From the NCBI GenBank assembly GCA_051884295.1, contig JBJEVK010000048.1, forward strand, positions 3,820 through 67,819: a stretch of DNA of 64,000 nucleotides. Reading direction: 5' to 3'. The notes below the pieces were generated by a model that was given only the letters and a program-made list of their open reading frames with translations, was not told where the DNA came from and ran no database searches. Made by a program: the position numbers and the translations under genes. Below, one piece after another: positions 22,282 through 42,886 of this stretch. This DNA is from Akkermansia sp. (GTDB lineage: Bacteria; Verrucomicrobiota; Verrucomicrobiia; Verrucomicrobiales; Akkermansiaceae). How positions within the stretch are numbered: the stretch's first letter is position 1; each line of letters begins with the position of its first letter.

Positions 22282-22639
22282 GCGGCAAAAACAACGCGCG
22301 CAGCGACCGCTCATTGCAAATTCCTCACTCTGGATGATCAGCATGTTTCGAGCGGTATCAACAAAGGGTATCTGCGCGGGAAACTGCCCAGCGGCTCGGG
22401 CTTCCACTGTTGTCGCGTTTACAGATCGGCGGGTTACCCGCCTCAATACTCAGTAGGAAAGCCTTACAACCCTTGAATAGGCACTGTGTTGCGGTAGTGT
22501 CCCGATTATTGACTTATTCATAATTTATTTATTGTCTGTATACTACAACGAGCGATCCAATGCTCGATGAGTTCTCTTTGACATTCTGAAAACCTTCGAT
22601 ACCCGGCAGATTTGAAATTACACCGTGGAGGGTGGATAT

Positions 22640-22785
22640 AGCATTTTGAATGCTGTAGCAAGACTATTTATGCAAGACGCAGCTAATGAGCGTGTTGTGT
22701 TTTTTCTAATTGACAAAGTTCGTCGGCAATCATTTATATCTCGCTGGCTATCTGCAGACTGTACCATAACAGCATTCAAAATGCT
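22640..22785. promoter_or_regulatory. Putative invertible promoter segment A
   Basis: Perfect 17-bp inverted repeat AGCATTTTGAATGCTGT (22640-22656) / ACAGCATTCAAAATGCT (22769-22785) around 112 bp; TATAAT abuts the right repeat (22786-22791). Confidence 0.75.
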
Positions 22786-22801
22786 TATAATGCCTTTTGT
22801 T

Positions 22802-23770
22802 ATGCTGCAAATTTCTACGGAGGAATCTCGGTTGATTAACATCGGACGATTATGCGGGGTGTTGGGGGTGGTGGCTATTCACTGTCGCCTTAATTCTCCC
22901 GTTATTGTCTCTCAAGTGCCCGAAGAGTTGTTGGAGCAGGTGCATTCGTGGTATTGTCTGCTTACTTTTTTCCCGGCATTGCCGATGTTGTTCATTTTGT
23001 CCGGCTACCTGTTCTTCCGCGATGTGGGGGAGGTTTATGGGTGGAAGGAGAATTATTGGATGAAGCTGAAGCGGCGTGGATTGTCGCTTGGCCTTTTTTT
23101 TGTTTTTTGGACCGTGGGTGGTTTTTTGTTTAATGTGTTCATTAGGAAAAATATGCCGGAAGGGGTGACGATTGAGAGGTTTTTATACTCCGGAATGGGT
23201 ATGTGGTATATACGCTCTTTGATGTGTTTTTCCCTCCTGTCTCCGTTGTATTATTTTATCGTCCGCTATCTGAAGCACCTGACTCCCGTCGTTTGCGTAC
23301 TCCTCTTTCCTGTGATACCTATTAACTTTGTGTGGTTTAATGTATACATCCTGTTGGGAGCCTACCTGGCTTATCACGGTATTTCGCTGATGAAAATCGC
23401 TTCGCTGTTGGATTGGAGGATGGCGGTGATAGCTTATTTTGGGATGATGGTTGCTTCTGCCTTTTGGGGGATTCATGTTCCGTGTCTCGTTACCATATTT
23501 GTCGCGTTGGCTGTTTGCCGGGGTATTCTGTTGTGTGTTCCGATACCGACGAGCTTCGTTGCCGGTTCGACATTTATCTATGTGGCTCATTTTTACATTG
23601 TCGGCGGAATGAAAAAAGGTCTTTTCACCTTGTTGCCTCATGAGTTTCCTTATTATCTTCTGAATATGTTGGTGAATTTCACGGTGACACCGATGATTTG
23701 TATTGCTGTATATATTGTTATCCGTCGTTTCCCACGTGTGTGTATGCTGATGACCGGGGGGCGGGGATAA
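22802..23770 (+). CDS. Acyltransferase family 3 (O-acetyltransferase-like) membrane protein, AT-rich
   Basis: N-terminal INIGRLCGVLGVVAIH, LFILSGYLF, MWYIRSL, STFIYVAH, about 10 hydrophobic segments. The ORF-track start at 22625 runs through the invertible segment, so the start is placed at MLQIS. Confidence 0.85.
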   Translation: MLQISTEESRLINIGRLCGVLGVVAIHCRLNSPVIVSQVPEELLEQVHSWYCLLTFFPALPMLFILSGYLFFRDVGEVYGWKENYWMKLKRRGLSLGLFFVFWTVGGFLFNVFIRKNMPEGVTIERFLYSGMGMWYIRSLMCFSLLSPLYYFIVRYLKHLTPVVCVLLFPVIPINFVWFNVYILLGAYLAYHGISLMKIASLLDWRMAVIAYFGMMVASAFWGIHVPCLVTIFVALAVCRGILLCVPIPTSFVAGSTFIYVAHFYIVGGMKKGLFTLLPHEFPYYLLNMLVNFTVTPMICIAVYIVIRRFPRVCMLMTGGRG

Positions 23771-23793
23771 AATGCAGCACCGGACGGATGTGC

Positions 23794-23826
23794 AAAAAAA
23801 CACCTTACGATGTTACTCGTAAGGTG
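23794..23826 (-). terminator. Rho-independent terminator of leuS
   Basis: CACCTTACGA/TCGTAAGGTG 10-bp stem followed by T7 on the minus strand. Confidence 0.8.
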
Positions 23827-23858
23827 CTGAGGATGAGGCTTGCAGGACGCTCGGAAAA

Positions 23859-26435
23859 TCAGTTCGCCACGATGTTGACCAGGCGACCCGGCACCACGAC
23901 GACCTTGCGCACGGTCTTGCCCGCCGTGAACTCGACCACGCGGGGCGAGGCGAGGGCGGCGGCTTCCAGCTCCTCCTTGGCAGCATCGATGGCTACCGTC
24001 ATGCGGTCGCGCAGCTTGCCGTTCACTTGAATGACAATCTCGCGCGTGTTTTCCACGAGGTATTCCTCCCGGTAGCTCGGCCAGGGCTGCGCGCAGAGCT
24101 GCTGCTGCGGCAGCTCGGGGAAAGCGGCGCAGAGAAGACTGTAGAGCTCCTCGGTGATGTGCGGGGCAAAGGGGTTGAGCACATGGAGCAGGGTGGCGTA
24201 GTCGCTGAGTGCGACATTCTCCGCTGCCGTCATGGCATTGGTGCATTCCATCATCTTGGAAATGGCGGTGTTGAAGCTCATGGCCTCGATGTCCTCCGTC
24301 ACCTTCTTGATGGTCTTGTGCAGCTCCTTGCGCACGGGCGTCACCTTGCCGTCATCGGCGGCAGTGACCTTGCCGGAGAGCTGCCACTCGCCCTGCTGAT
24401 TTTCGACCATGGCGATGCGCCATACGCGGGCGAGGAAGCGGCTGATGCCCTCCACACCCTTGGTCGCCCAGGGCTTGACCTCCTTCAGGGGACCCATGAA
24501 CATCTCGTAAAGGCGGATGGAGTCCGCCCCGTACGCGCGCACGATGTCGTCGGGGTTGACCACATTGCCGCGGCTCTTGGACATCTTCTGCCCGTCCTCG
24601 CCGAGAATCAGCCCCTGGTTGACCAGTTTGTTGAAGGGCTCGTTGGTGGACACCAAGCCGTAGTCGTAGAGTACCTTGTGCCAGAAGCGGGCATAGAGCA
24701 GGTGCAGCACGGCGTGCTCGGTGCCGCCGACGTAGAGGTCGACACCGCCGGGATTGCCGCTGCTGCCCATCCAGTACTCCTCGACCTTCTTGTCGACAAA
24801 GGCGCGGTCGTTCTTGGGGTCGAGGTAGCGCAGGTAGTACCAGCAGGAGCCCGCCCACTGGGGCATGGTGTTCGTTTCGCGGGTGTAGCGGTCGGAGTAG
24901 TGAATCCAGTCGGTCGCCTTGACCAGCGGGCCGCGGGGGTCGCCGCTGGGCTTGAAATCCTCCATCTCCGGCTGCAGCAGGGGCAGCTCGCTCTCCGGGA
25001 TGGCGTAGTGGTGGCCGTCCTCCTTATCCCAGATGATGGGGAAAGGCTCGCCCCAGTAGCGCTGGCGGCTGAAGAGCCAGTCGCGCAGCTTGTAGTTCAC
25101 CTTGCCGTGGCCGAAGCCCTGTTCCTCCAGCCAGGCAATCATGCGCTTCTTGGCCTCCGGCACGGAGAGCCCGTTGAGGTGCTCGGAGTTGACCATCGTG
25201 CCGTTGTAGCCCACAAAGTCCTTCCACGGGGTGGCGGGATCATCGGGCTGCACGACCTGCAGGATGGGCAGTCCGAACTTGGTGGCAAACTCGTAGTCGC
25301 GGCTGTCGTGCGCCGGCACGGCCATGACCGCGCCCGTGCCGTAACCGGCCAGCACGTAGTCGGTAATCCAGATGGGAATCTCGCGCCCGTTGACGGGGTT
25401 GACGGCGTAGGCTCCCGTAAAGACACCCGTCTTTTCCTTGGCAAGGTCGGTGCGCTCCAGATCGCTCTTGCCGGCGCAGGCGGCGCGGTAGTCCTCCACC
25501 GCCGCGCGCTGCTCGGGCGTGGTGATGGCATCCACCAGCTCGTGCTCGGGCGAGAGCACCATGTAGGTGGCGCCGTAGAGGGTGTCGGGGCGGGTGGTGT
25601 AGACGGTGATGCGGTGCTCACCGCAGGGGAAGGTGACTTCTGCGCCCTGGCTCTTGCCGATCCAGTTGCGCTGCAGCAGCTTGATGCTCTCCGGCCAGTC
25701 GAGAGGCTCGAGCTCATCAATCAGGCGCTCGGCGTAGGCGGTGATGCGCAGCATCCACTGGCGCAGCTTGCGGCGCTCCACGGTAAAGCCCTTGCTCTTC
25801 CACTCCTCGGCTTCCTCGTTGGCCAGCACGGTGCCCATGTCGGGGCTCCAGTTCACCATCCCCTCGGCCACATAGGCCAAGCGCACCTCGTCAATCTGTT
25901 CGCGCGTCCAACCCTTCGCCTCCAGCTCGCTGACGGGGCGGGCCTTGTTCAGCTCCGTGTTGTAGTAGGAGTTGTACAGGCGCAGGAAAATCCACTGCGT
26001 CCAGCGCACATAGTGCGGGTCGGTGGTGGCGATTTCGCGATCCCAGTCGTAGGAAAAGCCCAGCATCTTGAGCTGGCGGCGGAAATTGTCGATGTTGGCG
26101 TAGGTGGTGATGCTCGGGTGCTGCCCCGTCTTGATGGCATACTGCTCGGCGGGCAGACCGAAGGAATCCCAGCCCATGGGATGCAGCACGTTGAACCCGC
26201 GCATGCGCTTGTAACGGCTCACAATATCCGTCGCCGTGTACCCCTCGGGGTGGCCGACGTGCAGCCCCGCGCCGCTGGGGTAGGGGAACATATCGAGAAT
26301 GTAGCATTTGGGCTTGGAGGCATCAAAGCCCGCTTCGCCCGGGTTGGCCACGCGAAAGGTCTTTTCGGCATCCCAGACGGCCTGCCACTTCGGCTCAAAA
26401 ACATCGAACGGATACGGATTCTTGCGGTCGGACAT
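23859..26435 (-). CDS. leuS: Leucine--tRNA ligase
   Basis: [33 protein letters not shown]; true start MSDRKNPY lies inside the over-long ORF-track call. Confidence 0.97.
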
Positions 26436-26445
26436 ATCGCGCGCG

Positions 26446-26474
26446 ACTATAACGCGCCTGCGGCGGAAATGCAA
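26446..26474 (-). promoter_or_regulatory. Sigma70-like promoter for leuS
   Basis: Minus strand TTGCAT-17-TATAGT. Confidence 0.6.
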
Positions 26475-26577
26475 GGCTGATGTGCCCCCATGACACGCGT
26501 CCGCCCGCTCGGACGGCAGAAGCCCCCGCAGCGCGGGCAGGGCGCGCGCGAAATCTCTCGCATGCCCCCATTGTCGC

Positions 26578-26606
26578 TTGCCATACGGCGGGCGCTTTGC
26601 TAGAAT
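26578..26606 (+). promoter_or_regulatory. Sigma70-like promoter for the PBP gene
   Basis: TTGCCA-17-TAGAAT with TGn. Confidence 0.62.
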
Positions 26607-26618
26607 CGTGCCGTAAGC

Positions 26619-29207
26619 ATGGACCCGCTGGAAGAATTTCGGAGCCGCCGCGCGGCTGATGAGCACCGCCATCGCGCCAAGGAGAACACCTACCGCCGCG
26701 ATGCCCATCCCGTGCGGCGCTTTTTTCGGCGGCTCTTCCTGCTGGGGCTGTTGGCGGCCGTGGTGATGGCCGCGCTGGGCTACCTGCTGTTCACAGTGAT
26801 TACCGCCAAGTATTCCAAGTGGGCTGAGGAGTTCAACCTGGAGGACATCAATAACCTCGACCACCCCTGCATCATTTACGACCGCAATCAGCAGGAAATC
26901 GGGCGCATCTACGATGAGAACCGCAGCTATGTGACCATCGACCGCATCTCGCGCAGCATGATCGATGCGCTCGTGGCGCAGGAGGACAAGACTTTCTGGA
27001 CGCACCACGGCTTTGACCCCATGGGCATCCTGCGCGCGGCCAAGGAAGCCGCCGCCGCCCACGGCAGAGCCAATCAGGGCGCCTCGACCATCACGCAGCA
27101 GCTGGCGCGCAATGCCTACGACCTGGAGCGCCGCACGCAGGCGCGCGGCGGCAGCCGCTACGAGCGTAAAATTGTGGAGATTTTCTTGGCTATGCGTATT
27201 GAGGACAAGTACGACAAGAGCCAAATCATGGAGTTCTACCTCAACCGCGTCTACTTCGGCCGCGGCTTCTACGGCATCCGCTCGGCCTCGCTGGGCTACT
27301 TCGGCAAGGAACCCGCCGACCTGACCGTGCGCGAGGCGGCCAGCATCGCCGCTCTCATCAAGAATCCCGAGAACTACAACCCCATCCGCAACCCCAAGCT
27401 CAATCAAACCTGGCGCAACGATGTCATCGATCGCATGGAGCGCGCGGGTTATCTGACGGCGGGTGAGGCGGCGCGCGTGAAGGAGCAGCCATTGGGGCTC
27501 AACCCCAAGCCGCTGCGCCGCAACACCTCTTTCCTCCACTCGATTGTGCAGCAGCAGGCGGTGGACATCTTCCGCAACCCCGAGCGCGGCGAGGAAATCG
27601 TCAAGAGCCGCGGCATCAAGGTCTACACAACCATCGACAAGCAGATGCAGGAGGCGGCGGAGAGTGCTCTCTCCAAGCGCCTGAGCGAGTTGGAACAGCA
27701 CGAGGGCTACGCCCACGTGCGCTTTGAGGACAAGGACGACCCGCGCTGCGCCCAGCACCGCTACATCGACGGAGCGGTGTACGCCGTTGACAACAAGACG
27801 GGCGGGGTGCTGGTCTACGTGGGCGGGCGCAACTTCGAGCGCGATAATTTCGATATCATCGATGCGGGACGCCGCCCCCTGGGCACGGCCATGCTGCCTT
27901 TCCTCTACATGAGTGCCTTTGACAACGGCTATTCGCCTTGCTCGCGCCTGGTCGACGACGCCATGGACAACCGGCTGGCGGGCATCGGCGGTTCGGAGGG
28001 AATTTTGGGCGAATGGGGCATGGAGGTCAACAAGGGGCGCTACCTCGATTCGGTGACGGCGCGCCAGGCGCTGGAGTGGAGCAAAATCGCCGCGTCGGCG
28101 CGGCTCGGCATCGCTCTGGGCTCGCATCCGACCAAGGGAGCCAAGGCCTTTGTCGACACCCTGACCAACGTGGGTATCACCCCGCCGCCGCGCAACGCCT
28201 CCAGCACCGAGGCCAAGCCGCAGTATTATCCCCGCGTCTATCTGGGCACGGAGCCCGCCTCGCTGCGCGAGGTGACCATGGCCTACACGGTGTTCCCCAA
28301 CGCGGGGCGCCGCCCCATCGCCCCCTACATCGTCACCAAGGTGACGGACAGCAACGGCAAGATCCTGTGGGAAAATCCCCTGGCCGTCACGCACAACATG
28401 GTGGCGAGCACCACCCCCTGCACAGCCTACCGCCTGCACAGTATCATGCGCGAATCGCTCGACAAGGGCTCCGTGCAGCGTCTGCGCCCCTATCTGCCCG
28501 ACGGCTTCAACGGCGCGGCCAAAACCGGCACCAACTACGATTTTGCCGACAACGCGCTCTTTGTCTACAACTCCTCCTTCACCTGCGGCATCTGGCTGGG
28601 CTTCCTCAACGACCACCAGCCCATTTATCCCGAGGCATTCGGCGGCGACACCTGTGCGCCCATCATGGGGGCGGTGTTGCAGGCGGCGGGCAAGCGCTAC
28701 GCGGATGAGCCCCTGCCGCTGCCCGAGGGCGTGGAGGAGGTGGAAATCTGCACCACCGGCGGTCAGCTTGCGACGAACTTCTGCTTTGAATCGGTGATGC
28801 GCAACGGCAAGGCAGGCTATGTGCGCCCCACCTACCGCGAGTATTTCAACAAGGGCGATGTGTCGTTGGGCCTCTGCTCGGTGCACGGCGACGGGAGCCC
28901 CTCGCTCGTGGACTTTCTCGACATTCACGGCGGCCGCCTGAGCAACACGCGTGTGCTGCCCGTGCTGCCCGTGCTGCCCAAATCCTCGGCGCTGCTCGGC
29001 AAGGATCCCTACGAGTGCGACACCACCCTCTCGCCCAAGTACAAGGATGCTGCGGACTTGGGGGATGCCGGCAGCACGGCCGAAGAGGTGAGCGAGAGCG
29101 CCGACGACACCCCCGCGGAGGCGGGCGAAACCCCGACCGACAGCTCGCTGCAGCTGACACCGCCCCGCCCCCTGCGCCATTTGCCCCTTGTCCCCCTTCA
29201 ACTCTGA
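26619..29207 (+). CDS. Class A penicillin-binding protein (PBP1A-like): GT51 domain plus degenerate transpeptidase domain
   Basis: [41 protein letters not shown]; KTG retained, SxxK and SxN not. Confidence 0.88.
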
Positions 29208-29214
29208 TTTTCCC

Positions 29215-30621
29215 ATGTCCACCATCGAACAAGCCCTGGCGGCCACGCAGGAGAAGGCCCTGCACATCAACCTCGACAACACGTTCTACGGCTCCTTTGC
29301 CGAAATCGGTGCCGGGCAGGAAACCGCCAATTGGTTCTTTCGCGCGGGTGCTGCAGCGGGCACCGTGGCCAAGACCATCTCGGCCTACGACATGACCGTG
29401 AGCGACACGCTCTACGGCTCGGCCAAGCGCTACGTCTCCGAGGAGCGCCTGAAGCAGATGCTCGATTACGAATACAGCCACCTCATCGAGCGTTTGGGTG
29501 CCAAGCGCGGGGAGAGTACCTGCTTCTTCACCTTCTGCAACACCGTCAAGTGCAAGGGCTACCGCGACAACGGCCCCTGGTTCGCGTGGCTGGGCGTGCG
29601 CTTTCAGCTGCGCCCCGGTGCCGAGCCCAGTGATTTGGTGATGCACGTGCGCCTGCTGGTGCCCGACCACGACCTGCAGATGCGCGTGCTGGGCATCCTC
29701 GGCGTCAACCTGCTCTATGCGCTCTTCTACAAGCGCGAGCGCATGGAGGAGTTTGTGGAGAGCGTGGGCGAGAACATCGACCGCCACTTCTTTGAAATCG
29801 ACTTCATGCGCTTCTCGGGCAACGGCTTCGGCATGTTCGACAACCGCATCCTCGCCCTGCAGCTCGTGCGCAGCGGGCTTTCCGAGGCGACCCTCTTCTG
29901 CCCCGACGGCACCGTGGCGCAGCCGGCTGACTTGCTCTACAAGCGCCCCATCGTGCTCATGCGCGGCAGCTTCATGCCGCTGTGCAACATCCATTCGGAG
30001 ATGATGGAGGCCGTGCGCGCCAAGTTCCTGCCCACCCTCAGCCCCGAGCAGCGCGAGCGCGCGGTGGACATCTGCGAAATCTCGCTCACCAACCTCCTGC
30101 GCGGCTCGGAGGTGGATCTGCTCGACTTCATCGACCGCGCCGATGCTCTGGCGGCCCTCGGCAAAATCGTCATGGTCACCAACATCACCCACTTCCACCG
30201 CATCTCGCAGCTGCTCAACCAGTTCACAAAGGCGCCCATCGCCATCGCGCTCTCCATCGGCCTGCTCAACGAGCTCTTCAAGGATAAGTGGGCCGACGAC
30301 CTGCCCGGCGGCATTCTGGCCAGCATGGGGCACATCTTCCTCAACGAGACGCGCTTCTACGTCACGCCCTGGATTAACCGCAAGACGGGCGAATTCGTCA
30401 CCGCCGGCACTTACCGAGCCCCGGAGAAATACCACTACCTCTACCGCCACCTGCGCGAGATCGGCGACATCATCGAGGTGCCCTATTTCAACCAAAAGCT
30501 GCTCCTCTGCACCCCGCGCGACATCATTCGCATGATTCAGGAGGGCGATGAGCAGTGGCGCGACTATGTGCCGGAGGCCGCTTGCCGCATGGCCGACCAC
30601 CTGAAAGGAGGCAACGCGTGA
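29215..30621 (+). CDS. Conserved protein with CinA/PncC-like N-terminal and nucleotidyltransferase-like C-terminal regions
   Basis: FAEIGAGQE...SAYD...YVSEERL N-terminal region; [11 protein letters not shown] resembles the G(S/T)FxPxHxGH motif. Confidence 0.55.
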
Positions 30622-31829
30622 CGGACGAGCGGGCTCAGTTCCCCCTGTTGAGCTGCACCGTCGGCAAGGCTCCCCTCGTCTACCTGGACAACGCCGCCAC
30701 GACGCAGAAACCCCTCTGCGTGCTGGAGGCGCTGGAGCGCTACTACCGCAGCGTTAACGCCAACATCCACCGCGGCGCGCACTACCTGAGCCGTCTGGCA
30801 ACGGAGCAGCACGAGGCGGCGCGCCTGACGGTGGCCGAGTTCCTGCACGCCGCCTCGCCCCGCGAGATCATCTTCACCTCCGGCACCACGGCGGGCATCA
30901 ATCTGGCGGCGCAGGTGCTCACCGCATGCTTCAAGCCCGGGGACGAGATCCTGACAACGACCGACGCGCACCACTCCAACATCGTGCCTTGGCAGATGCT
31001 TTGCGAGCGCACGGGCGCCGTGCTGCGCCCCATTCCCTTGACGCCCGAGCTGCGGGTCGACACGGCAGCCTATGAGCAGATGCTCAACCCGCGCACGCGA
31101 CTGGTGGCCATCCCCTGCGTTTCCAACGCGCTGGGCGCGGCGCACCCGGTGCAGCAGATGGTGGCCGCCGCCAAGCGCAACCGCCGCGACACCCTGGTGT
31201 TGCTGGACGGGGCACAGAGCACCGCCCACCAGGCGGTGGATGTGCAGGCGCTCGGCTGCGATTTCTACGTGTTCTCGGGGCACAAGATTTATGCGCCTAC
31301 GGGAACGGGCGTCTTGTGGGGGCGCGAGGAGTTGCTGGAGCAGCTGCCGCCTTGGCAGGGCGGCGGCGAGATGATTGCCGAAGTCAGCTTTGCCGGAACC
31401 ACCTACAACAAACTGCCCTTCAAATACGAAGCCGGCACCCCCAACATCGGCGGCAATATCGTGCTGGCGGAGGCCTTGCGCTATGTGCAGCGCGTGGGGC
31501 TTGAGCGCATTGCCGCTCGCGAGCAGGCGCTCACCCGGCGCCTCTACGACGGCTTGGCGGCCATGGACGGCGTGCAGATTCTCGGCGCGCGCGAGGGCAG
31601 GGGGGCGCTGATTTCCATCGTGGTGCCGGGCGTGCACCACTACGACTTGGGCACCCTGCTGGACCACATGGGCATTGCCGTGCGCACGGGGCACCACTGC
31701 TGCCAGCCGTTGATGGCGAGCCTGGGCATCACGGGCACCACGCGCTACTCCCTGGCGCTCTACAACAACGAGGACGACGTGGAGCGCGCCCTGAGCGCCA
31801 CGCGCCGCGCGCTGGACATGCTGCGCTGA
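30618..31829 (+). CDS. sufS: SufS family cysteine desulfurase
   Basis: YLDNAATTQKP, FSGHKIYAP, VRTGHHCCQP; GTG start after AAGGAGG, overlapping the upstream stop. Confidence 0.92.
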   Translation: MTDERAQFPLLSCTVGKAPLVYLDNAATTQKPLCVLEALERYYRSVNANIHRGAHYLSRLATEQHEAARLTVAEFLHAASPREIIFTSGTTAGINLAAQVLTACFKPGDEILTTTDAHHSNIVPWQMLCERTGAVLRPIPLTPELRVDTAAYEQMLNPRTRLVAIPCVSNALGAAHPVQQMVAAAKRNRRDTLVLLDGAQSTAHQAVDVQALGCDFYVFSGHKIYAPTGTGVLWGREELLEQLPPWQGGGEMIAEVSFAGTTYNKLPFKYEAGTPNIGGNIVLAEALRYVQRVGLERIAAREQALTRRLYDGLAAMDGVQILGAREGRGALISIVVPGVHHYDLGTLLDHMGIAVRTGHHCCQPLMASLGITGTTRYSLALYNNEDDVERALSATRRALDMLR

Positions 31830-31849
31830 TTCTTTTTCCCTCTCCTGTC

Positions 31850-34377: not shown

Positions 34378-34403
34378 CGGTAGGGGGGAAGCTGTGCAAG
34401 CCC

Positions 34404-35774
34404 TTAGCTGTAGGCGGATTCGACGCGGGTGGCGACATCCTTGTAGCCGTAGTCCACCTCGTAGATGACCTTGAAGTTTTCGAGAGCTTTTTCCTTGTTG
34501 CCCGCTTCGTCGCAGAGCAGGCCGATCATGTAGTGGAGCTCCTTCTTGGTCTCGTCCATGACCTGCAGCTCGTTGTTGGCCTCCTCGAGCTGGCGGATGG
34601 CCATGTCGAGCATCTTCTTGGCGTGGTAGCACTTGCCGAGCATGAGCATGGCCTTGATGCGCAGGTTGGGGTTGGTGCGGGCGCGCTGCAGGGCGGGGAT
34701 GGCCTCGGAGAAGTGCTCGGCATCGAAGAGCGCCTGACCGTACTTGAACTGCAGCTGGGCATCGGTGGGGTTGGCCTCCACGCGAGCCTTGGCATCAGCC
34801 ACCACCGCCTCGGCAATCTCCTTCTTGCGGTTGGCGAGGGCGGTCTTGGCCTCCTCGTTGTTCGGGTCGGCGGCCAACACCTGCTCGTAGTAAGCCAGCT
34901 CGGCCTCCATGGCCTTCTCGTGCATCTCCATGGCCTTGTCGTTGATGGAGACATCGGCGCTGCCGCCCAGCTGGAAGGCGTAGGCGTAGAAGGAGTAGGC
35001 ATTGGCGTAGTCCTCCATCTGCTCGTAGCAGGAGGCGATGTCGCGCACGACTTGCAGGTTGGTGTTGTCGGCGGCGTACTGCTCGGAGAGCTGGGCGAGG
35101 CGTGCCTCGAGCTCCGCACCCGTCAGACCCACCTTGTCCGCGCTTTCCAGCGCGGCGGTGGCGCCGGCGTTCTTCATCTTGGTGCGGAAGTCGCCCTTGC
35201 CCTCCCAGTTGCCCTGCTTCATGGACGCGCGGGCGGAGCAGTCCTTCTCGCCGCGCATGGCGATGGGGTCGGTGCGGTCGATGGCCAGCACGCGGCGGTA
35301 GGCATCAGCAGCCTGGGAAAACTGCTCATGCTTGATGTAGTGGTTGGCCAGCATGTGCAGGTGCTTCTTCGGGTTGGGTTGTCCCTGGCAAATGGTCTCC
35401 AGCGCAAAGGCGGCCATGTCGTGCAGGCCCAAGTCGTTAGCGGCGGCAAAGAGCGTTTCGTTGGCGCTGACGGAGTAGGGATCCTTCTCCAGCTCATCCT
35501 CCACGGCGGCCAGCGTCTCCTCGGGATTCTTGCGCGAGGTGGTCAGGCGCATGCCGCCGAAGAGCGAGGTGCGCTTGCCGGCATCGGGTGCCGATTTGAC
35601 TTCGCAGGCTCGCAGCACCTTGCGCCCCTCCAGAAAGCCCGGGGCGCGTTTGATGACCGTGCGCAGAATACTGACGGCGTACTTGTAGTTGCGGGTTTGG
35701 ACAGCCTGCTGAGCCTTGACCCACAGACCGCGGAGGTCGGCGGGAAGCTCGCGTTCGGTGATGATGGTAATCAT
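34404..35774 (-). CDS. Tetratricopeptide repeat protein
   Basis: Helical A/Y/L TPR-like repeats such as QLQFKYGQALFDAEHFSEAIPALQRA; strong GC3 bias. Confidence 0.8.
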   Translation of the reverse strand: MITIITERELPADLRGLWVKAQQAVQTRNYKYAVSILRTVIKRAPGFLEGRKVLRACEVKSAPDAGKRTSLFGGMRLTTSRKNPEETLAAVEDELEKDPYSVSANETLFAAANDLGLHDMAAFALETICQGQPNPKKHLHMLANHYIKHEQFSQAADAYRRVLAIDRTDPIAMRGEKDCSARASMKQGNWEGKGDFRTKMKNAGATAALESADKVGLTGAELEARLAQLSEQYAADNTNLQVVRDIASCYEQMEDYANAYSFYAYAFQLGGSADVSINDKAMEMHEKAMEAELAYYEQVLAADPNNEEAKTALANRKKEIAEAVVADAKARVEANPTDAQLQFKYGQALFDAEHFSEAIPALQRARTNPNLRIKAMLMLGKCYHAKKMLDMAIRQLEEANNELQVMDETKKELHYMIGLLCDEAGNKEKALENFKVIYEVDYGYKDVATRVESAYS

Positions 35775-35907
35775 AGCAAGTGAGGAAAAGAAAAACCGGA
35801 CAGAAAAGTGTGCCGACACGGTGTGGCGGCGCTTTCTGTTTTCTAGCACATTCCCCCGGCGATTTCAACCTTGTTTTTTGAAAAAAATATGGCAGAATTC
35901 GCCTGCA

Positions 35908-36612
35908 ATGCGTGCAGATGCCCTCCTGAGCCGCTATGGCTACTGTTCGCGCCGAGAATGCGCCGCCTGGCTGGCGCAGGGGCGTGTCTTGTTCCGCGGC
36001 GAGCCCGTGCGGCGCGCCAATGCCCCGGTGGAGCCGGCGGAGGTCTTGGTGGACGGTGAGCCCGTCCCCTTCGTCAACGGTCTGTATGTGGCCTTCAACA
36101 AGCCGCTTGGCTGCACTTGCAGCCACCGCGAGGCGGGGAAGCTCGTGTACGATTACCTGCCGCCGCAGTGGCTGGCGCGCAAGCCGGGGGTGAACACAGT
36201 CGGGCGGCTGGACAAGGAGACGAGCGGTCTGCTGCTGCTGACGGATGACGGCGCGTTCGAGCACGCTATGTGCAGCCCGCGCCGCCATGTACCCAAGGAA
36301 TATGCTTTCCGCACGGCGGCTCCGGTGCCCCCTGCGGCGGCGGCGCTGTTCGCGGCGGGGACGCTGATGCTCGAGGGCGAGCGCACGCCCTGCCTGCCGG
36401 CGGAGCTGCGCCTGACGGGAGCCTGCGAGGGCGTGCTGACCCTGCACGAGGGGCGCTACCACCAGGTGCGCCGCATGCTCGCGGCGGTGGGCGCTCCCGT
36501 GGCGGCGCTGGAGAGACGCGCCATCGGTCCGCTGCACTTGGAGAATCTGGGCTTGGCTCCGGGGGCATGGTGTGCCATCGATCCGGCGCTGTTTATCGCG
36601 AGCAAGGGCTGA
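35908..36612 (+). CDS. RsuA family pseudouridine synthase
   Basis: S4-like N-terminus, FNKPLG, VGRLDKETSGLLLLTDDG, EGRYHQVRRM. Confidence 0.92.
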   Translation: MRADALLSRYGYCSRRECAAWLAQGRVLFRGEPVRRANAPVEPAEVLVDGEPVPFVNGLYVAFNKPLGCTCSHREAGKLVYDYLPPQWLARKPGVNTVGRLDKETSGLLLLTDDGAFEHAMCSPRRHVPKEYAFRTAAPVPPAAAALFAAGTLMLEGERTPCLPAELRLTGACEGVLTLHEGRYHQVRRMLAAVGAPVAALERRAIGPLHLENLGLAPGAWCAIDPALFIASKG

Positions 36613-36615
36613 AGC

Positions 36616-37368
36616 ATGGGTGGGGACGAGCCGATTGCCGTGGAGGCGGATTTCCGCATTCTCTACGAGGATGAGGAGGTTCTGGCGGTGGATAAGGCAG
36701 CCCCGCTGCTGATGCACCCCACCGGGCCGAAGCCCGAGCCGACGCTGTGGCACGGACTGCGTGAGCTGTTGGCCTACGAATTGGCCACGGGCGGGCAGCT
36801 CTCGCTCATCAATCGCTTGGATCGCGAGACGAGCGGCATCGTGCTGGTGGCCAAGACGGCGGCGGCGGCGCGCGAGCTGGGTCGGGCGATGATGGAGCAC
36901 CGCCTGCACAAGGAGTATCTCGCTCTGGTGCGCGGCTGCCCGCCGTGGGAGAGTGCCCTTTGCGCCGAGCCCATCGGGCGCATGGAGGGGGTGGCGCCCA
37001 CCCGCGTGCATGTGCGGCAGTGCTGCCGCCCCGACGGCAAAGCCTGCCGCACGCGTTTTGAATGCCTGCGCCGCCTGCCGCAGCGCGGTTGGGCGCTGCT
37101 GCGCTGCCTGCCGGAGACGGGGCGCATGCACCAAATCCGCGTGCATGCGGCGCATCTGGGCTTCCCCCTCGTGGGCGACAAGATTTACGGCGGGCGTGAG
37201 CAGGATTACCTCGATTTCATCGCGGGCGGGTGGACGCCGGAGCTGGCGGAGCGCCTGCTGCTGCCCCGCCACGCGCTGCACGCCGCGCGGCTCTGCTTCC
37301 CGCGGGGCGGACGCATGCTCTGCGTGGAATCGCCCCTGCCGCCCGACATGGCGCGGCTTTTGCGTTGA
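36616..37368 (+). CDS. RluA family pseudouridine synthase
   Basis: VDKAAPL, NRLDRETSG, TGRMHQIRVH, VGDKIY. Confidence 0.92.
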   Translation: MGGDEPIAVEADFRILYEDEEVLAVDKAAPLLMHPTGPKPEPTLWHGLRELLAYELATGGQLSLINRLDRETSGIVLVAKTAAAARELGRAMMEHRLHKEYLALVRGCPPWESALCAEPIGRMEGVAPTRVHVRQCCRPDGKACRTRFECLRRLPQRGWALLRCLPETGRMHQIRVHAAHLGFPLVGDKIYGGREQDYLDFIAGGWTPELAERLLLPRHALHAARLCFPRGGRMLCVESPLPPDMARLLR

Positions 37369-37393
37369 TTTCCGCCGGGCAGGGGGGTAGAAT
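37365..37393 (+). promoter_or_regulatory. Sigma70-like promoter for pyrE
   Basis: TTGATT-17-TAGAAT. Confidence 0.55.
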
Positions 37394-37403
37394 AACCGGC
37401 GTT

Positions 37404-37970
37404 ATGAGTAGCGCCAAGAAAGAATTGCTGGAGATTCTCCTCGCCAAGTCCATCAAGACCGGTCACTTCATCCTTGCTTCGGGCAAGGAGAGCGATTTGT
37501 ACTGCGATTGCCGCGTCACCACGCTCGATGCCAAGGGCGCCAACCTCATTGGCGAGCTGGGCTGGAAGCTCGTGCAGGAGGAAATCCTGCCCCGCTTCCC
37601 CGAGGCCTGCGCCATCGGCGGCATGACCATGGGCGCGGATCCCATCGCGCTGGCCATCGGCATGTACAGCGCGAGCGCCGCGCAGCCGCTCAAGGTGTTC
37701 ACCGTGCGCAAGGAGGCCAAGGACCACGGGCGCGGCAAGCGCATCGAGGGCAATTTCGAGGCCGGGCAGCACATCATCGTGGTCGATGATGTGATCACCA
37801 CGGGCGGCTCCACCCTCAAGGCGATTGACGCCATCGAGGCGGAGGGCGGCAAGGTGGTGGCGGCGCTGGTGCTGGTCGACCGCGAGGAGGGAGGCCGCGA
37901 GGCCATCGAGGGTCGCGGCGTGCCCGTGTTCCCGCTCTTCACGCGCGGCAGCATTTTCGGGGACAAGTAA
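37404..37970 (+). CDS. pyrE: Orotate phosphoribosyltransferase
   Basis: FILASGKES, RKEAKDHG, VVDDVITTGGS. Confidence 0.95.
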   Translation: MSSAKKELLEILLAKSIKTGHFILASGKESDLYCDCRVTTLDAKGANLIGELGWKLVQEEILPRFPEACAIGGMTMGADPIALAIGMYSASAAQPLKVFTVRKEAKDHGRGKRIEGNFEAGQHIIVVDDVITTGGSTLKAIDAIEAEGGKVVAALVLVDREEGGREAIEGRGVPVFPLFTRGSIFGDK

Positions 37971-37973
37971 GCC

Positions 37974-39038
37974 ATGTTGCCGCTGATTGCCGGGATTGAG
38001 GGGCTCGCGCTCACCGAGCGCGAGCGCGCCCTCTTCGCGCGCCTGCAGCCCGCCGGGTACATCCTCTTCTCGCGCAATGTGGCGGATGAGGAGCAGGTTC
38101 GCGAGTTGACGGATGCGCTGCGCCGCCTGACCGAGGGACCGGATGCACCCGTGATTGCCGTCGATCAGGAGGGCGGGCGCGTGGTGCGCACCGCTGCGCT
38201 GGGGCTGCATCTGCCCTCGGCGGCCGCGCTGGCGGCGGCGGGAGATGTGCACCTGATCCGCCAGGCGGCGCTCTACAACGCGGCGGGGCTGCACTCGCTG
38301 GGCATCAACACGGTGCTGGCCCCCGTGCTCGACATCGCGAGCCCGCACGCCAACGCGCTCCCCGGTCGCTGCTGGGGCAGCGATGCGCCGTCTGTGCTGG
38401 AGCGGGCAGGGGAGTGGAACCGCACCGTCAGCCGCCGCTGCATCGCCACCTGCGGCAAGCATTTCCCCGGCATGGGCGCCGCGCAGTGCGACCCGCACCT
38501 CGATTTGCCCGTGCTGCACGGCGATGCCGACTCTTTTTTGGCAGAGGCTGCGCTGCCTTTCCTCGCGCTGATGCCCGAGCTGCCCTCGCTCATGGTGGCG
38601 CACCTGCTCATCCCCGAGATGGATGCCGAGCTGCCCTCCTCGCTCTCCCCGGCGATGATTCGCGATTTCCTGCGCCTGCGCCTGGGCTACGAGGGGGTGG
38701 TGTTCACGGATGACCTCTGCATGGGCGCCATTGCGGGGCGCTACACGCCCGAACAGTCGGTGCCGCTGGCGCTGCGCGCGGGCTGCGATCTGCCCCTCCT
38801 GTGCCACCATGCCTGCGACCATTTGGAGGCGGTGGCGGCAGCGGTGGAGGACGGCGTTCCGCCGGAGCTGCTGGCGGAATCGTCCGAGCGCGTGGCGCGC
38901 TTCCGCCTGCACCTGCATTCCGAGCGCCCCATGCCCTTCATGGCATGGCGGGAGTACCTGCAGCACTGCGCCGAGTTCTGCGCGCGGGTGCCCGAGCCGA
39001 CGGCTGTCCTGCCGGAATCGGCGGTGCAGCGCTATTGA
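37974..39038 (+). CDS. nagZ: GH3 beta-N-acetylhexosaminidase (NagZ-like)
   Basis: AVDQEGGRV, KHFPGMG, DPH, TDDLCMGA. Confidence 0.85.
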   Translation: MLPLIAGIEGLALTERERALFARLQPAGYILFSRNVADEEQVRELTDALRRLTEGPDAPVIAVDQEGGRVVRTAALGLHLPSAAALAAAGDVHLIRQAALYNAAGLHSLGINTVLAPVLDIASPHANALPGRCWGSDAPSVLERAGEWNRTVSRRCIATCGKHFPGMGAAQCDPHLDLPVLHGDADSFLAEAALPFLALMPELPSLMVAHLLIPEMDAELPSSLSPAMIRDFLRLRLGYEGVVFTDDLCMGAIAGRYTPEQSVPLALRAGCDLPLLCHHACDHLEAVAAAVEDGVPPELLAESSERVARFRLHLHSERPMPFMAWREYLQHCAEFCARVPEPTAVLPESAVQRY

Positions 39039-39111
39039 ACAGCCCTGCTGCCCCGGCGCGGGCAGCTTGGGTCTGACCTCTTGTTGCTTGGGGGAGAAAA
39101 AGAGGCGGGTT

Positions 39112-39159
39112 GCGCTACATATTGTGGCATTGTTCAAAAATGGCAACAAAATATAGTGG
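39112..39159. promoter_or_regulatory. Tandem NrdR boxes
   Basis: Cores CTACATATTG (39115-39124) and CAAAATATAG (39147-39156), each 9/10 to CWATATATWG, 32 bp apart, upstream of nrdD. Confidence 0.8.
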
Positions 39160-39189
39160 AAAGAAAATTTCACTTTCCGTTTTTTTTCC

Positions 39190-39218
39190 TTGCCGCGCCG
39201 AGTGCCGCATGCTACATT
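39190..39218 (+). promoter_or_regulatory. Sigma70-like promoter for nrdD
   Basis: TTGCCG-17-TACATT with TGn; a second candidate TTGTTC-16-TATAGT at 39130-39157 overlaps NrdR box 2. Confidence 0.5.
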
Positions 39219-39351
39219 GAGCACGTTCCTGCTCGTTTCGGAGCAGTCGGAGACCCCCGTGTGCCTGCCTCGTGTTGCCCCTTGCGGCAATGCCCGTGTC
39301 CGGCGCGCGCCGTGTTCCCAAACCCGTTTCCATCAACCTTACTACATCGCC

Positions 39352-41469
39352 ATGCCGGAAATCATCAAACGCAACGGAAAACGTGAGCGCTTCGAGGCCT
39401 ACAAAGTGCAGCAGGCCATCGAGAAGGCTTACCACTCCACCCATGAGGACTACAACCCCCTCGTCTACGCCAACGTGCTCGATGCGCTGGCGAAGGAGGA
39501 GTACCTGCCCGTCGAAAAGGTGCAGGACATCATCGAAAAGGAGCTCATGAAGGCGGGTTCGTTTGAGACGGCGCGCAGCTTCATCAAGTACCGCTTCCTG
39601 CACAAATTGCAGCGCGAGCAGATTGCCGGCATGTACCAGGGCAACACCTGGGTGGACTGCAAGCAAACCATCGAGGAATACATCGGCAACACCGACTGGC
39701 GCATCAAGGCCAACTCCAACACCACCTACTCCAACGCCGGGCTGGTCAACAACACGGCGGGCAAGGTGATTGCCAACTACTGGCTCGACCAAGTCTACTC
39801 GCCCGAGGAGGGCGCTGCCCACCGCAACGGCGACTACCACATCCACGATCTCGACTGCCTGACCGGCTACTGCGCGGGCTGGAGCCTGCGCAACCTGCTC
39901 AACGAGGGCTTCAACGGCGTGCGCAGCCGCGTCAACAGCCGCCCGCCCAAGCACTTCCGCGAGGCGCTGGGGCAGATGGCCAACTTCCTGGGCATTCTGC
40001 AGAGCGAGTGGGCCGGCGCGCAGGCCTTCTCCTCCTTCGACACCTACCTCTCCCCCTACCTCTTCAAGGATCAGCTCTCCTTTGACGATGTCAAGAAAGC
40101 CCTGCGCAGCTTCGTGTACAACCTCAACGTGCCGAGCCGCTGGGGACAGAGCCCCTTCACCAACGTCACCATCGACTGGACCGTGCCGCGCGACCTGCGC
40201 GAGCAGACCCCCTACAGCGGCGGGGCGCACATCTTCGAGGGGCTGCATGACGAGCATTTGCTGGCGCTGGCCAAGGAGCGCGGGGTGGAGGAGCTGACGG
40301 AGCTGACCTACAAGCACTTCCAGCCCGAGATGAAGGTGATTCAGCGCGCCTTCTACGAGGTGCTGACCGAGGGCGACAGCACCGGGCAGCCCTTCACCTT
40401 CCCCATCCCCACCGTCAACATCACCGAGGACTTCGATTGGGAGGGGGAGAACGTGCCGCTGCTCTTCGAGAACGCCGCCAAGATCGGCTCCTCGTACTTC
40501 CAGAACTTCATCGGCTCGCAGTATACCTACGACGAGAACGGCAACAAAATCATCGACGAAGCCGCCTACAAGCCCGACGCCGTGCGCTCCATGTGCTGCC
40601 GCCTGCAGCTCGACCTGCGCGAGCTGCTCAAGCGCGGCGGCGGCCTCTTCGGCTCGGCGGAGATGACGGGCTCCATCGGCGTGGTCACCATCAACATGGC
40701 GCGCCTGGGCTACCTCTACAAGGGCAACCGCAACCTGCTCTACAGCAAATTGGGCGAACTGATGGATCTGGCCAAGAGCACGCTGGAGAAAAAGCGCGTG
40801 TTCATCAACAAGCTCTACGAGCGCGGTCTCTACCCCTACACCAAGCGCTACCTGCCGCACCTGCGCAACCACTTCTCCACCATCGGCCTCAACGGCATCA
40901 ACGAGATGCTGCGCAACTTCTCCGGCGACACCATGAACACCGCCACGCCCGAGGGCATCGCCTTTGCCGAGGATGTGCTGCACTACATGCGCGAGCGCAT
41001 CCGCGGCTACCAGGAGGAGACCGGCAACCTCTACAACCTGGAGGCCACGCCGGCCGAGGGCACCACGCACCGCTTCGCCCGCGAGGACCTCAAGCGCTAC
41101 CCCGACATCATCCAGTCCGGCTCGCCGGGGCACCGCTACTACACCAACAGCTCGCAGCTGCCCGCCGGCTACACCCACGACCTCTTCAAGGCGCTCAAGA
41201 TGCAGGACAAGCTGCAGTGCTGCTACACGGGCGGCACCGTCTTCCACATGTACATGAGCGAGGCCATCTCCTCGCCCGAAGCCTGCCGCGACATCGTGCG
41301 CAAGGTGCTGACCAACTTCAAGATGCCCTACATCACCGTCACGCCGCTCTTCTCCGTCTGCGAGAAGCACGGCTACCTCAAGGGGCGGCACGACTACTGC
41401 CCGCTCTGCGACGCCGAACTGTTGGAAAAAGCCCGCCGCGAGGAGCAGCCCCAGCTGCCGCTCTTCTGA
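39352..41469 (+). CDS. nrdD: Class III anaerobic ribonucleoside-triphosphate reductase, large part (ATP cone to Zn ribbon)
   Basis: IIKRNGKRERFE ATP cone, HIHDL, GYCAGWS, SMCCRL, EATPAE, CEKHG...CPLC; the glycyl-radical motif is absent. Confidence 0.93.
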   Translation: MPEIIKRNGKRERFEAYKVQQAIEKAYHSTHEDYNPLVYANVLDALAKEEYLPVEKVQDIIEKELMKAGSFETARSFIKYRFLHKLQREQIAGMYQGNTWVDCKQTIEEYIGNTDWRIKANSNTTYSNAGLVNNTAGKVIANYWLDQVYSPEEGAAHRNGDYHIHDLDCLTGYCAGWSLRNLLNEGFNGVRSRVNSRPPKHFREALGQMANFLGILQSEWAGAQAFSSFDTYLSPYLFKDQLSFDDVKKALRSFVYNLNVPSRWGQSPFTNVTIDWTVPRDLREQTPYSGGAHIFEGLHDEHLLALAKERGVEELTELTYKHFQPEMKVIQRAFYEVLTEGDSTGQPFTFPIPTVNITEDFDWEGENVPLLFENAAKIGSSYFQNFIGSQYTYDENGNKIIDEAAYKPDAVRSMCCRLQLDLRELLKRGGGLFGSAEMTGSIGVVTINMARLGYLYKGNRNLLYSKLGELMDLAKSTLEKKRVFINKLYERGLYPYTKRYLPHLRNHFSTIGLNGINEMLRNFSGDTMNTATPEGIAFAEDVLHYMRERIRGYQEETGNLYNLEATPAEGTTHRFAREDLKRYPDIIQSGSPGHRYYTNSSQLPAGYTHDLFKALKMQDKLQCCYTGGTVFHMYMSEAISSPEACRDIVRKVLTNFKMPYITVTPLFSVCEKHGYLKGRHDYCPLCDAELLEKARREEQPQLPLF

Positions 41470-41526
41470 CAGAGAGCCGGTAGCGTCAATTGCCACCATC
41501 TTACATTCAACCCACATATCCACACC

Positions 41527-41736
41527 ATGAATCCCGAAATCCAAGGAGTCGTCAAGACCGATGAAGAGCTGCTGCAGGAGCACGCAGCCGAGCGCACCAA
41601 GTGCACCGTCTACACCCGCGTGATGGGCTACCACCGCCCGGTGGAAACCTTCAACGCCGGCAAACAGGGCGAGTTTGAAGAGCGCGAGCACTTCGAAGAG
41701 CCCTGCGGCTGCGGCTGCGATGCCATCCTCAAGTAA
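41527..41736 (+). CDS. Stand-alone NrdD C-terminal glycyl-radical domain
   Basis: RTKCTVYTRVMGYHRPVETFNAGKQGEF. Confidence 0.88.
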   Translation: MNPEIQGVVKTDEELLQEHAAERTKCTVYTRVMGYHRPVETFNAGKQGEFEEREHFEEPCGCGCDAILK

Positions 41737-41762
41737 GAGGGGCCGCCTTGCGCGTCATCTCG

Positions 41763-41796
41763 CGGCGTTTGCTGCCCGCCGCGGCAGCAAACGCCG
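41763..41796 (+). other. 14-bp perfect hairpin between the small nrdD ORF and nrdG
   Basis: CGGCGTTTGCTGCC-cgccgc-GGCAGCAAACGCCG. Confidence 0.7.
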
Positions 41797-41808
41797 AATT
41801 TTCCCGCT

Positions 41809-42516
41809 ATGGTGCACCCCATTGACATCACCCCGCTGACCTTCCTCGACTACCCGAAGAAGGCCGCCTGCATCCTGTGGTACACGGGCTGCAACCTGCG
41901 CTGCCCCTACTGCTACAACCCCGAGCTCGTGCTGGGGCACGGCGGGGGGCAGGACGAAATGTCCTTCCTGCGCGAGCGGGCGGGCTTTCTGGATGCCGTG
42001 GTGCTCAGCGGGGGCGAGTGCACCCTCAACCCCGACATCGCGGAACTCTGCCGCGCCATCAAGCGCGAAACAGGGCTGCTCATCAAGATCGACACCAACG
42101 GCTCCAACCCGCAGGTCGTCCGCGCCCTGGCCGAGGAGCAGCTCATCGACTACGTGGCGCTGGACAACAAAATGCCCGGCAACCGCAGCTGGCACCTGCC
42201 CGGCGGCGCTCTCCTCTTCGACCGCTTCCGCGCCACCCTCAAGGTGCTGCAGCACTACGCCCTGCCGCACGAAGTGCGCACCACCGTCCACCCCGGCCTG
42301 CTGGACGAGGCCGACATTCTCCGCATGATTCGCGAGACCAAGTCCTTCGGCTACACGGGCAACTACTACCTGCAATTCTTCTTCGATGCCGGCAAGGGCA
42401 AAACCCTGGGCAATCTGCCGCCCCCCTCGCGCCGCTACGACCGCGGCCTGCTCGACGACATGAGCCCCTTGCCCATCGTCTACCGCAACTTCCCCGAGGA
42501 TCGCTACCGCTATTAA
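41809..42516 (+). CDS. nrdG: Anaerobic RNR activating radical SAM protein
   Basis: GCNLRCPYCYN, VVLSGGE, IKIDTNGS, EVRTT; adjacent to nrdD. Confidence 0.93.
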   Translation: MVHPIDITPLTFLDYPKKAACILWYTGCNLRCPYCYNPELVLGHGGGQDEMSFLRERAGFLDAVVLSGGECTLNPDIAELCRAIKRETGLLIKIDTNGSNPQVVRALAEEQLIDYVALDNKMPGNRSWHLPGGALLFDRFRATLKVLQHYALPHEVRTTVHPGLLDEADILRMIRETKSFGYTGNYYLQFFFDAGKGKTLGNLPPPSRRYDRGLLDDMSPLPIVYRNFPEDRYRY

Positions 42517-42640
42517 CGGCGGCTCCCTCTTGCCTCAGCCTTGCGAGAGCGCCTCGTTATCCGTTGATCAGGCGCCCTATCAGCTCGCCCGCTCTCGGGG
42601 TGAGCGTCCACCGTTGGATGAGCTCGTTCACAGGCGCAGC

Positions 42641-42817
42641 TACAGCCTTGTTCATGCTGTGTCAAGGTGGAATCGTGTATCATTTTGTAAAAATGTTAGC
42701 GTTGAATGCTTTGCGGTGAACAGGCATGGGACGGCAGCTTGCGTGCGTCGAGCTGTTCAAGCTGACTTAGTGATTGATTTTCAATGAACTCATCAACACA
42801 GCATGAACAATGCTGTA
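42641..42817. promoter_or_regulatory. Putative invertible promoter segment B
   Basis: 21/22-bp inverted repeat TACAGCCTTGTTCATGCTGTGT (42641-42662) / ACACAGCATGAACAATGCTGTA (42796-42817) around 133 bp. Confidence 0.75.
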
Positions 42818-42886
42818 TACGTGAGTTGTCAGCCGATGGAGTTCCTGCTCCGATGAGGCGATGACATTCTCACCCCAATTAAGGCT

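Follow-up and report, generated by a model that had tools for sequence, protein, structure and literature searches.

Two putative promoter switches in Akkermansia sp. belong to a genome-wide family of inverted recombination sites

Are two short segments bounded by inverted repeats, one upstream of an acyltransferase gene and the other upstream of an autotransporter gene in a 64,000-nt stretch of Akkermansia sp. DNA, promoter switches, and are they under common control with others elsewhere in the genome? An earlier note on this stretch (the window; C48:3820-67819) had proposed that a single invertase encoded elsewhere switches several surface genes by joining a mobile -35 element to a fixed -10 element, with the recombination site itself as the spacer. 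The question was addressed in the whole assembly (G000; other G numbers are other genomes, and C numbers are contigs of G000 unless another genome is named) and by comparison with related genomes. The two loci are probably promoter invertons of the Akkermansia type, belonging to one site class, ACAGCAT(T)-N3/5-(A)ATGCTGT, with at least 30 members.

Two loci in the window and a family across the genome

The four sites (22638, 22769, 42642 and 42798 in window coordinates), the -10-like hexamers beside them and the TTG on the bottom strand at each segment's far inner edge were all found where the earlier note had placed them. The motif AYAGCM-N7-TGCTKW has five matches in the window, compared with 0.13 expected from dinucleotide-preserving shuffles. 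The features of the two loci are:

22638-22656, left recombination site of locus 1, ATAGCATTTTGAATGCTGT, core TTTGA
22657-22768, invertible segment of locus 1, 112 nt
22656-22661, reverse strand, mobile -35 hexamer of locus 1, TTGCTA, facing left, away from the gene (OFF)
22769-22787, right recombination site of locus 1, ACAGCATTCAAAATGCTTA, core TCAAA, the reverse complement of the left core
22786-22791, forward strand, fixed -10 of locus 1, TATAAT, sharing the last two bases of the right site
22832-23770, forward strand, target gene of locus 1, membrane acyltransferase (Acyl_transf_3), 312 aa
42642-42660, left recombination site of locus 2, ACAGCCTTGTTCATGCTGT, core TGTTC, with one arm mismatch (ACAGCCT)
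42661-42797, invertible segment of locus 2, 137 nt between the 19-nt sites (133-137 nt depending on the repeat boundary)
42660-42665, reverse strand, mobile -35 of locus 2, TTGACA, facing left towards the 3' end of a radical-SAM gene (OFF)
42798-42816, right recombination site of locus 2, ACAGCATGAACAATGCTGT, core GAACA
42816-42821, forward strand, fixed -10-like hexamer of locus 2, TATACG
42887-46831, forward strand, target gene of locus 2, autotransporter (Autotransporter beta-domain), 1314 aa

The inverted repeat of locus 1 is perfect over 17 nt (22640-22656/22769-22785) and that of locus 2 is identical at 21 of 22 nt (42641-42662/42796-42817). The central bases of the two sites in a locus are exactly reverse-complementary, and they are not the same at the two loci. 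The distance to the gene start is 44 nt at locus 1, where the acyltransferase gene begins with TTG after a GGAGG ribosome-binding site (the gene call is identical on Logan contigs), and 70 nt at locus 2. A search with Rfam found no known RNA at either locus; elsewhere the window holds a bacterial RNase P RNA of class A (17256-17628, reverse strand, 195.7 bits).

The sites are far from confined to the window. In the assembly (1.92 Mb in 116 contigs, 64% G+C, rated 90% complete) the family consensus is ACAGCAT-N5-ATGCTGT, the majority of copies reading ACAGCATT-N3-AATGCTGT. Exact consensus sites number 29 and those with up to two mismatches 64, while reversed or shuffled control sequence gave 0 to 5. 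When more degenerate partners were allowed, a whole-genome motif scan yielded 25 intact inverted pairs with reverse-complement centres, spaced mostly 119 to 157 nt from start to start (225 nt in one pair), and roughly ten additional half-switches were located no more than 200 nt from a contig end. G000 therefore carries a set of at least 30 switches with one class of recombination site, as expected from the earlier proposal of a genome-wide family.

The cores do differ between the two window loci, as had been noted, but they are not unique to a locus: the TTTGA/TCAAA core of locus 1 recurs at C19:1028/1173, and TCGGA and TGCGA are each found at three loci. Since identical cores occur at different loci, core mismatch cannot be what blocks all cross-locus recombination, and the suggestion that non-matching cores prevent it is not a full explanation. 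Beyond the -35 end, inner segments from different loci are not homologous, which argues against a family of transposable elements; the segment of locus 1 resembles those of other loci only in its -35 and A/T-rich end.

The genes on the -10 side of the switches encode seven PEP-CTERM proteins, two autotransporters, two Acyl_transf_3 proteins, a LicD protein, a polysaccharide deacetylase, a sulfatase-domain membrane protein, a Sel1-repeat protein and large polytopic membrane proteins. The targets form a surface and envelope regulon, and the earlier expectation of surface genes was borne out by the PEP-CTERM proteins, autotransporters and envelope-modifying enzymes.

Two sequences of about 50 nt, ...ctgaattgcaagactaaatgcgacaaagcgaaaacaacttcattttaggcac and ...gtgtaagttgcaaaatcaaatgcgacaccgaaaagccgttgcagaacaccttg, recur at contig ends beside half-switches (C12, C23, C57 and C61, C65) and may be the ends of a repeated element.

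Promoters divided by the recombination site

When each junction of the 25 pairs was oriented from the segment outward, all 25 pairs showed an A/T-rich stretch followed by cTTGct or cTTGac abutting the site (consensus a/t-rich..cTTGctACAGCAT), at a single inner end in 24 pairs and at both ends in one. The -35 hexamer is TTGnnA, the final base of which doubles as the first base of the site, so that the interior of the site forms a spacer of 17 nt (16 nt at locus 1). On the outer side, 20 of the 50 flanks have a TAnnnT whose first T is the final T of the site. At 64% G+C, a base-composition estimate gives a chance expectation of well under one TTG and about one to two TAnnnT at these fixed positions. 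The predicted arrangement of a mobile -35 and a fixed -10, separated by the site as a 16- to 17-nt spacer, thus holds across the family.

By strict sigma-70 criteria applied across the site, nine to ten loci are ON as assembled and seven are ON only after an in-silico flip, so ON and OFF layouts coexist in the one assembly. Half of the -35 elements have no -10 or gene in the direction they face. In a few switches both flanks carry a -10 (C67:8914, C97:39349), and these could toggle between two genes. At the two window loci, a promoter scan found no gene-facing sigma-70-like promoter as assembled, and both are assembled OFF. Flipping locus 1 in silico creates TTGCTA-16-TATAAT, which passes the strict criteria. 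Flipping locus 2 creates TTGACA-17-TATACG, which fails them solely because the final T is missing; the predicted promoter may be weak, as it is without this conserved final T of the -10.

Tandem switches are present outside the window at C29:17571-17992, both upstream of one autotransporter gene (1320 aa). The first is ON, and the second has a cTTGcc -35 at both inner ends and so would be ON in either orientation.

The same division of the promoter was seen with quite different arms. In G007, switches with CGGATT arms have the matching layout TTGACnn-CGGATTNNNAATCCG-(n)TAnnnT. As these are split alike, the split promoter appears to be a property of the genus, the arms being what differs.

Inverted orthologues, candidate recombinases and other explanations

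Inversion was evident from comparison of orthologous loci. The C29:17571-17712 switch and its orthologue in G128 have colinear flanks with 95% identity, while the 104-nt inner segment can be aligned only as the reverse complement (77/104). The centres differ in a compensating manner at both sites (TGCGC/GCGCA versus TGTGC/GCACA). Three further pairs of related genomes have a flipped switch between colinear flanks. A switch that precedes a gene for a divergent tyrosine recombinase (on C20 in G000; described below) is ON in G000 and inverted in G080, and has been cleanly excised in G105 and G128, where one hybrid site remains; this type of gene is thus found ON, OFF and with its segment excised across four close relatives. 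The two orientations of its centre (CTG/CAG) differ by the middle base only. The flipped orientation that had been predicted is therefore present among orthologous switches of the site class in related genomes, but was found for neither of the two window loci.

A nested multi-site region was observed in G128 (C269:17900-20700). It contains five sites with one core (TGAGA/TCTCA), only one segment that bears a -35, and three signal-peptide genes that are paralogues and share the same leader. The arrangement resembles a shufflon, with several genes competing for the one mobile half-promoter. Two such paralogues in G000 were both assembled against the same promoter end, at the ends of C4 (32727) and C48 (69155, about 1.3 kb past the window). 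These contig ends were considered as proof of mixed orientations and rejected, because both stop 55 nt past the last difference, which is an ordinary repeat merge of paralogous flanks. From the G128 region, shared use of one promoter by the C4 and C48 paralogues is plausible.

There is no recombinase gene in the window, in agreement with the proposal that the invertase is encoded elsewhere. G000 encodes XerC, XerD, two phage-type integrases (one of them broken), one large serine recombinase of 451 aa and three divergent tyrosine recombinases, on C20, C70 and C96, which match PF00589. The genes referred to below are:

C20:26852-27910, tyrosine recombinase
C70:40159-41136, tyrosine recombinase
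C88:3373-4728, large serine recombinase (Resolvase domain, integrase type), the sole one in the genome

The divergent tyrosine recombinases belong to a family with 1 to 21 copies per Akkermansia genome. A sample of 251 genomes, covering 122 genera of the phylum, showed it only in Akkermansia (21/21) and in one other genus. The exception, G335 (same class, 1.9 Mb), has two close homologues with 39 to 44% identity, which could reflect transfer between gut lineages.

In relatives, recombinase genes of this family lie 5 to 250 bp downstream of an ACAGCAT-type pair, and the C20 gene sits behind a degenerate switch of the same class, with a degenerate partner site and an invertible segment. In a tree of 42 members, the 19 with upstream ACAGCAT-type sites form one clade (support 96/100; the A-clade), which also holds C20 and C70. 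Recombinases located behind CGGATT-, ACAGGATT- and CGGATA-type pairs fall in other clades. The ACAGGATT-type pair is private, being present only at the recombinase gene itself, and C96 is one of the CGGATA type. CGGATT sites and members of the CGGATT-linked clade are both missing from G000. When C20 was aligned to XerA (4a8e) and XerD (1a0p), the catalytic Arg, Lys, second Arg, His and Tyr were all present. C20 and/or C70, as members of a clade confined to Akkermansia that is linked to this site class, are the most likely candidate invertases.

A second small site class occurs in G000 at C96:536-709, where CGGATAGGAAAACCG and CGGTTTTCCTATCCG lie 159 nt apart upstream of the C96 recombinase gene, with TTGACA on the inner end. 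A paralogous copy of this pair is found at the start of contig C81 (C81:40-213).

These observations suggest the following mechanism. The unit that switches would be a 100- to 210-nt segment between two inverted sites. An A-clade recombinase would bind as a dimer to the palindromic arms at each site, both sites of the switch would synapse, and strand exchange would take place across the central T-N5-A region. Because a centre of odd length is never its own reverse complement, each site is directional, and recombination between inverted sites results in inversion. Inversion, catalysed in trans, would carry the -35 with its A/T-rich element from one flank to the other, the switch being ON when this lies beside the -10 and OFF when it lies on the far side; transcription would start only on a flank that holds a -10. 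Clean excision of the C20-type switch may result from its self-complementary outer centre bases (CTG/CAG), with which the two possible alignments differ by one base. As the site is also the spacer, it may be speculated that bound recombinase could block RNA polymerase.

Several points weigh against extending this mechanism to the window loci or to a particular enzyme. No flipped copy of either locus was found in genomes or Logan contigs, and a metagenome scan for the junction of locus 2 gave no match. Locus 2 was present on Logan contigs from SRR30616814, SRR30616824 and SRR30616825, and locus 1 on one contig from SRR30616824 (listed in two samples), in each case 100% identical, OFF and unbroken at the switch. 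Locus 1 has no orthologue to compare, since 140 other species of the genus all lack it. The nearest relative, G105 (its contig C23; orthologous to window positions 42250-42695), retains the left half-site of locus 2, ACATCATTGTTAATGCTGT, and about 35 nt of the segment, followed by unrelated sequence with an excinuclease-like gene in place of the autotransporter gene. Given this relic, the arm mismatch and the incomplete -10, locus 2 may be decaying; the G105 locus also shows that gene content beside these switches is fluid. Regarding the enzyme, C20 has an Asp at the His-II position (DVLRH), C70 has no recognisable site upstream, and the two are not distinguishable as the acting recombinase. 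In addition, the A-clade sample was chosen partly for adjoining ACAGCAT sites, which inflates the clustering; no such selection applied to the other site classes or to the cases in G007, G050 and G115.

The family might then be active while both window loci are relics locked OFF, with no useful rate of switching. Besides the uniformly OFF contigs and the degenerate half-site in G105, this reading draws on the left-arm mismatch (ACAGCCT) and missing T6 of the -10 at locus 2, and on the outer arms of locus 1, both of which deviate from the consensus (ATAGCAT, ATGCTTA). However, the window repeats have kept their near-perfect match and their exactly complementary cores, the arm deviation of locus 1 yields a perfect TATAAT, loci with comparable outer-arm deviations were found ON (C79:6887), and minority orientations would be hidden in consensus contigs. 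Loss of switching at both loci is a real possibility and yet, overall, an unlikely one. Far less probable still is an explanation by miniature transposable elements, whose terminal inverted repeats and outward promoter would form hybrid promoters in the manner of insertion sequences (IS) with no site-specific inversion. The copies are indeed short (~140-180 bp), numerous, bounded by inverted repeats and equipped with an outward -35, and the gene at locus 1 is accessory. Against this, the inner segments are unrelated beyond the -35 end, the repeat centre differs by locus whereas transposon ends copy each other, no target-site duplications were seen, and orthologous loci differ by inversion in place and not by presence or absence at new positions.

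The position of 19-nt palindromes exactly between -35 and -10 is the classic one for a repressor, so the sites might be operators of a dimeric transcription factor, paired for reasons other than recombination. An operator, however, needs no second copy 120 to 160 bp away with a reverse-complement centre. The outward-facing half of the -35 elements, the inverted orthologous segments between colinear flanks and the co-variation of site classes with recombinase clades also do not fit, and this explanation is the most improbable of those considered. There is equally little to recommend a Mpi-like inversion by the single Resolvase-domain protein of G000 instead of tyrosine recombinases, although global serine invertases such as Mpi exist elsewhere. 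The C88 protein is a large recombinase of the integrase type, not a small invertase resembling Hin or Mpi; the variable centre of odd length suits the 7-nt overlap of tyrosine recombinases better than the 2-nt crossover of serine recombinases; and it is a tyrosine recombinase clade that is physically linked to the ACAGCAT class in many genomes. Promoter inversion by a tyrosine recombinase of the A-clade remains the preferred explanation of the family.

Site classes and their meaning for Akkermansia

When one genome per species was scanned for paired core motifs, most of the records recovered were of Akkermansia sp. from animal and human guts. Variable reverse-complement centres were seen only in Akkermansia records; the remaining matches were direct or tandem repeats or a constant-core repeat, and on this basis non-Akkermansia matches to the pair pattern were rejected as family members. 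In Cytophagales and Arcicella, inverted pairs TAAGCATCTCCGATGCTAT ... ATAGCATCGGAGATGCTTA, ~140 nt apart and with a constant centre, occur at many loci; these belong to Bacteroidota and represent a separate switch family or repeated element. In Janthinobacterium, Duganella and Massilia, direct repeats ACAGCATTCATAATGCTGG occur every ~153 nt and constitute a tandem array unrelated to the Akkermansia switches.

The ACAGCAT class is lacking in 16 other genera of the order, and within the genus its abundance depends on the lineage. In G007 and G050 it is private to one recombinase gene, and in G000 there are no matches to CGGATT-N(0-9)-AATCCG. The counts of the two motifs are:

CGGATT-N3-AATCCG: 21-78 per genome in six genomes, including two complete ones (G007, G050); few elsewhere
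CAGCAT-N5-ATGCTG: 16-34 per genome in the nearest relatives G080, G128, G115 and G105 (1.8-1.9 Mb); 0-8 elsewhere

Switches of this kind have already been published for Akkermansia with other repeat arms. A. muciniphila ATCC BAA-835 has 32 invertons in one repeat group, 'inverton group 138' (PMC11892184), and that paper states that both the repeat motif and the promoter motif of the group match Jiang et al. 2019 (Science 363:181). The repeat motif of Jiang et al. 2019 is in turn quoted as CGGATT..AATCCG in PMC13343947 (2026), where a switch at cps1 was shown to flip in culture, mice and humans by PCR, qPCR and long reads. The published invertons and those of G000 have in common many small intergenic switches, one repeat class per genome, surface-gene targets and the same genus; both have palindromic arms around a variable centre flanked by ATT...AAT, and a -35 inside, the site as spacer and a -10 outside (as observed in G007). 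They differ in their arms, ACAGCAT/ATGCTGT here and CGGATT/AATCCG there, with only the ATT-N3-AAT centre common to both. From this comparison the G000 switches are a sister class to the published CGGATT motif, as that motif is quoted in PMC13343947. The invertase for Akkermansia invertons is not named in PMC11892184 or PMC13343947, and none was found in the literature searched; searches for the ACAGCAT motif returned only primer coincidences or nothing relevant.

Other well-known systems resemble the G000 switches in part. The invertible polysaccharide promoters of Bacteroides fragilis under Mpi (Krinos et al. 2001, cited in PMC13343947), an invertase that the earlier note had named as an example from Bacteroides, share the idea of one trans-acting global invertase, proposed for many dispersed surface-structure promoter switches. 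The parallel fails at the class of enzyme, as Mpi is a serine recombinase while the candidates here are tyrosine recombinases; moreover, Bacteroides promoters lie wholly inside the invertible region, whereas here they are split across the site. Small serine invertases of the Mpi or Hin type have a 2-bp crossover, in contrast to the 451-aa large serine recombinase and the variable centre of an odd 3 to 5 nt in G000. Cre/loxP and FLP/FRT have two inverted binding arms around an asymmetric spacer, which alone sets the direction of the site, and inverted sites lead to inversion. The Akkermansia sites likewise have arms around an asymmetric spacer that gives direction, but the arms are 6 to 8 bp, the whole site is 19 bp and the spacer sequence varies by locus. 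In fimS of Escherichia coli, switched by tyrosine invertases of the FimB/FimE type (PMC6083910), inversion also turns a promoter ON or OFF upstream of a gene for a surface structure. There, however, the whole promoter is inside the segment, the repeats are 9 bp, accessory proteins are needed and dedicated recombinases are adjacent; here, the -10 stays outside the element and just the -35 half is mobile, there are ~30 loci per enzyme class and the window has no recombinase. Hybrid promoters formed by IS (an IS fusion promoter is described in PMC11894529) similarly join a mobile -35 to a fixed -10 across an element boundary. Their junction is made once by transposition, in contrast to reversible site-specific inversion with the site as spacer.

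A broader reading, which can be put forward only tentatively, is that inversion in Akkermansia is a modular, hierarchical system. Each recombinase clade would have its own class of arms (ACAGCAT, CGGATT, ACAGGATT or CGGATA), and each recombinase gene would stand behind a switch of its own class, flipping its own half-promoter together with a regulon of anything from one private switch to more than 30 surface switches. Competence for inversion would then itself be phase-variable, and lineages would re-wire their surface by expansion or loss of a class. If this is true, ACAGCAT replaced CGGATT as the global class in the clade of G000, and the placement of the site in the spacer lets bound recombinase and RNA polymerase compete for the same DNA.

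With respect to the reachable literature, three aspects appear to be new: the ACAGCAT class, along with an uncultured Akkermansia clade in which it serves as the global class; the explicit geometry of the split promoter; and the matching of recombinase clades to site classes, every recombinase gene being preceded by a switch of the class that goes with it.

Akkermansia, a candidate probiotic, has a surface (capsule, adhesins and envelope modifications) that varies between cells, partly through invertons. ACAGCAT switches would escape tools trained on the published CGGATT motif, and the layout described here provides a simple rule for locating switches and scoring them as ON or OFF in metagenomes of uncultured Akkermansia. 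It also points to concrete candidate invertases, namely C20 and C70 in G000 and the CGGATT-linked clade in G007, a genome from the clade of the published motif. The genus holds several interchangeable site classes, each tracked by a specific clade of recombinases.

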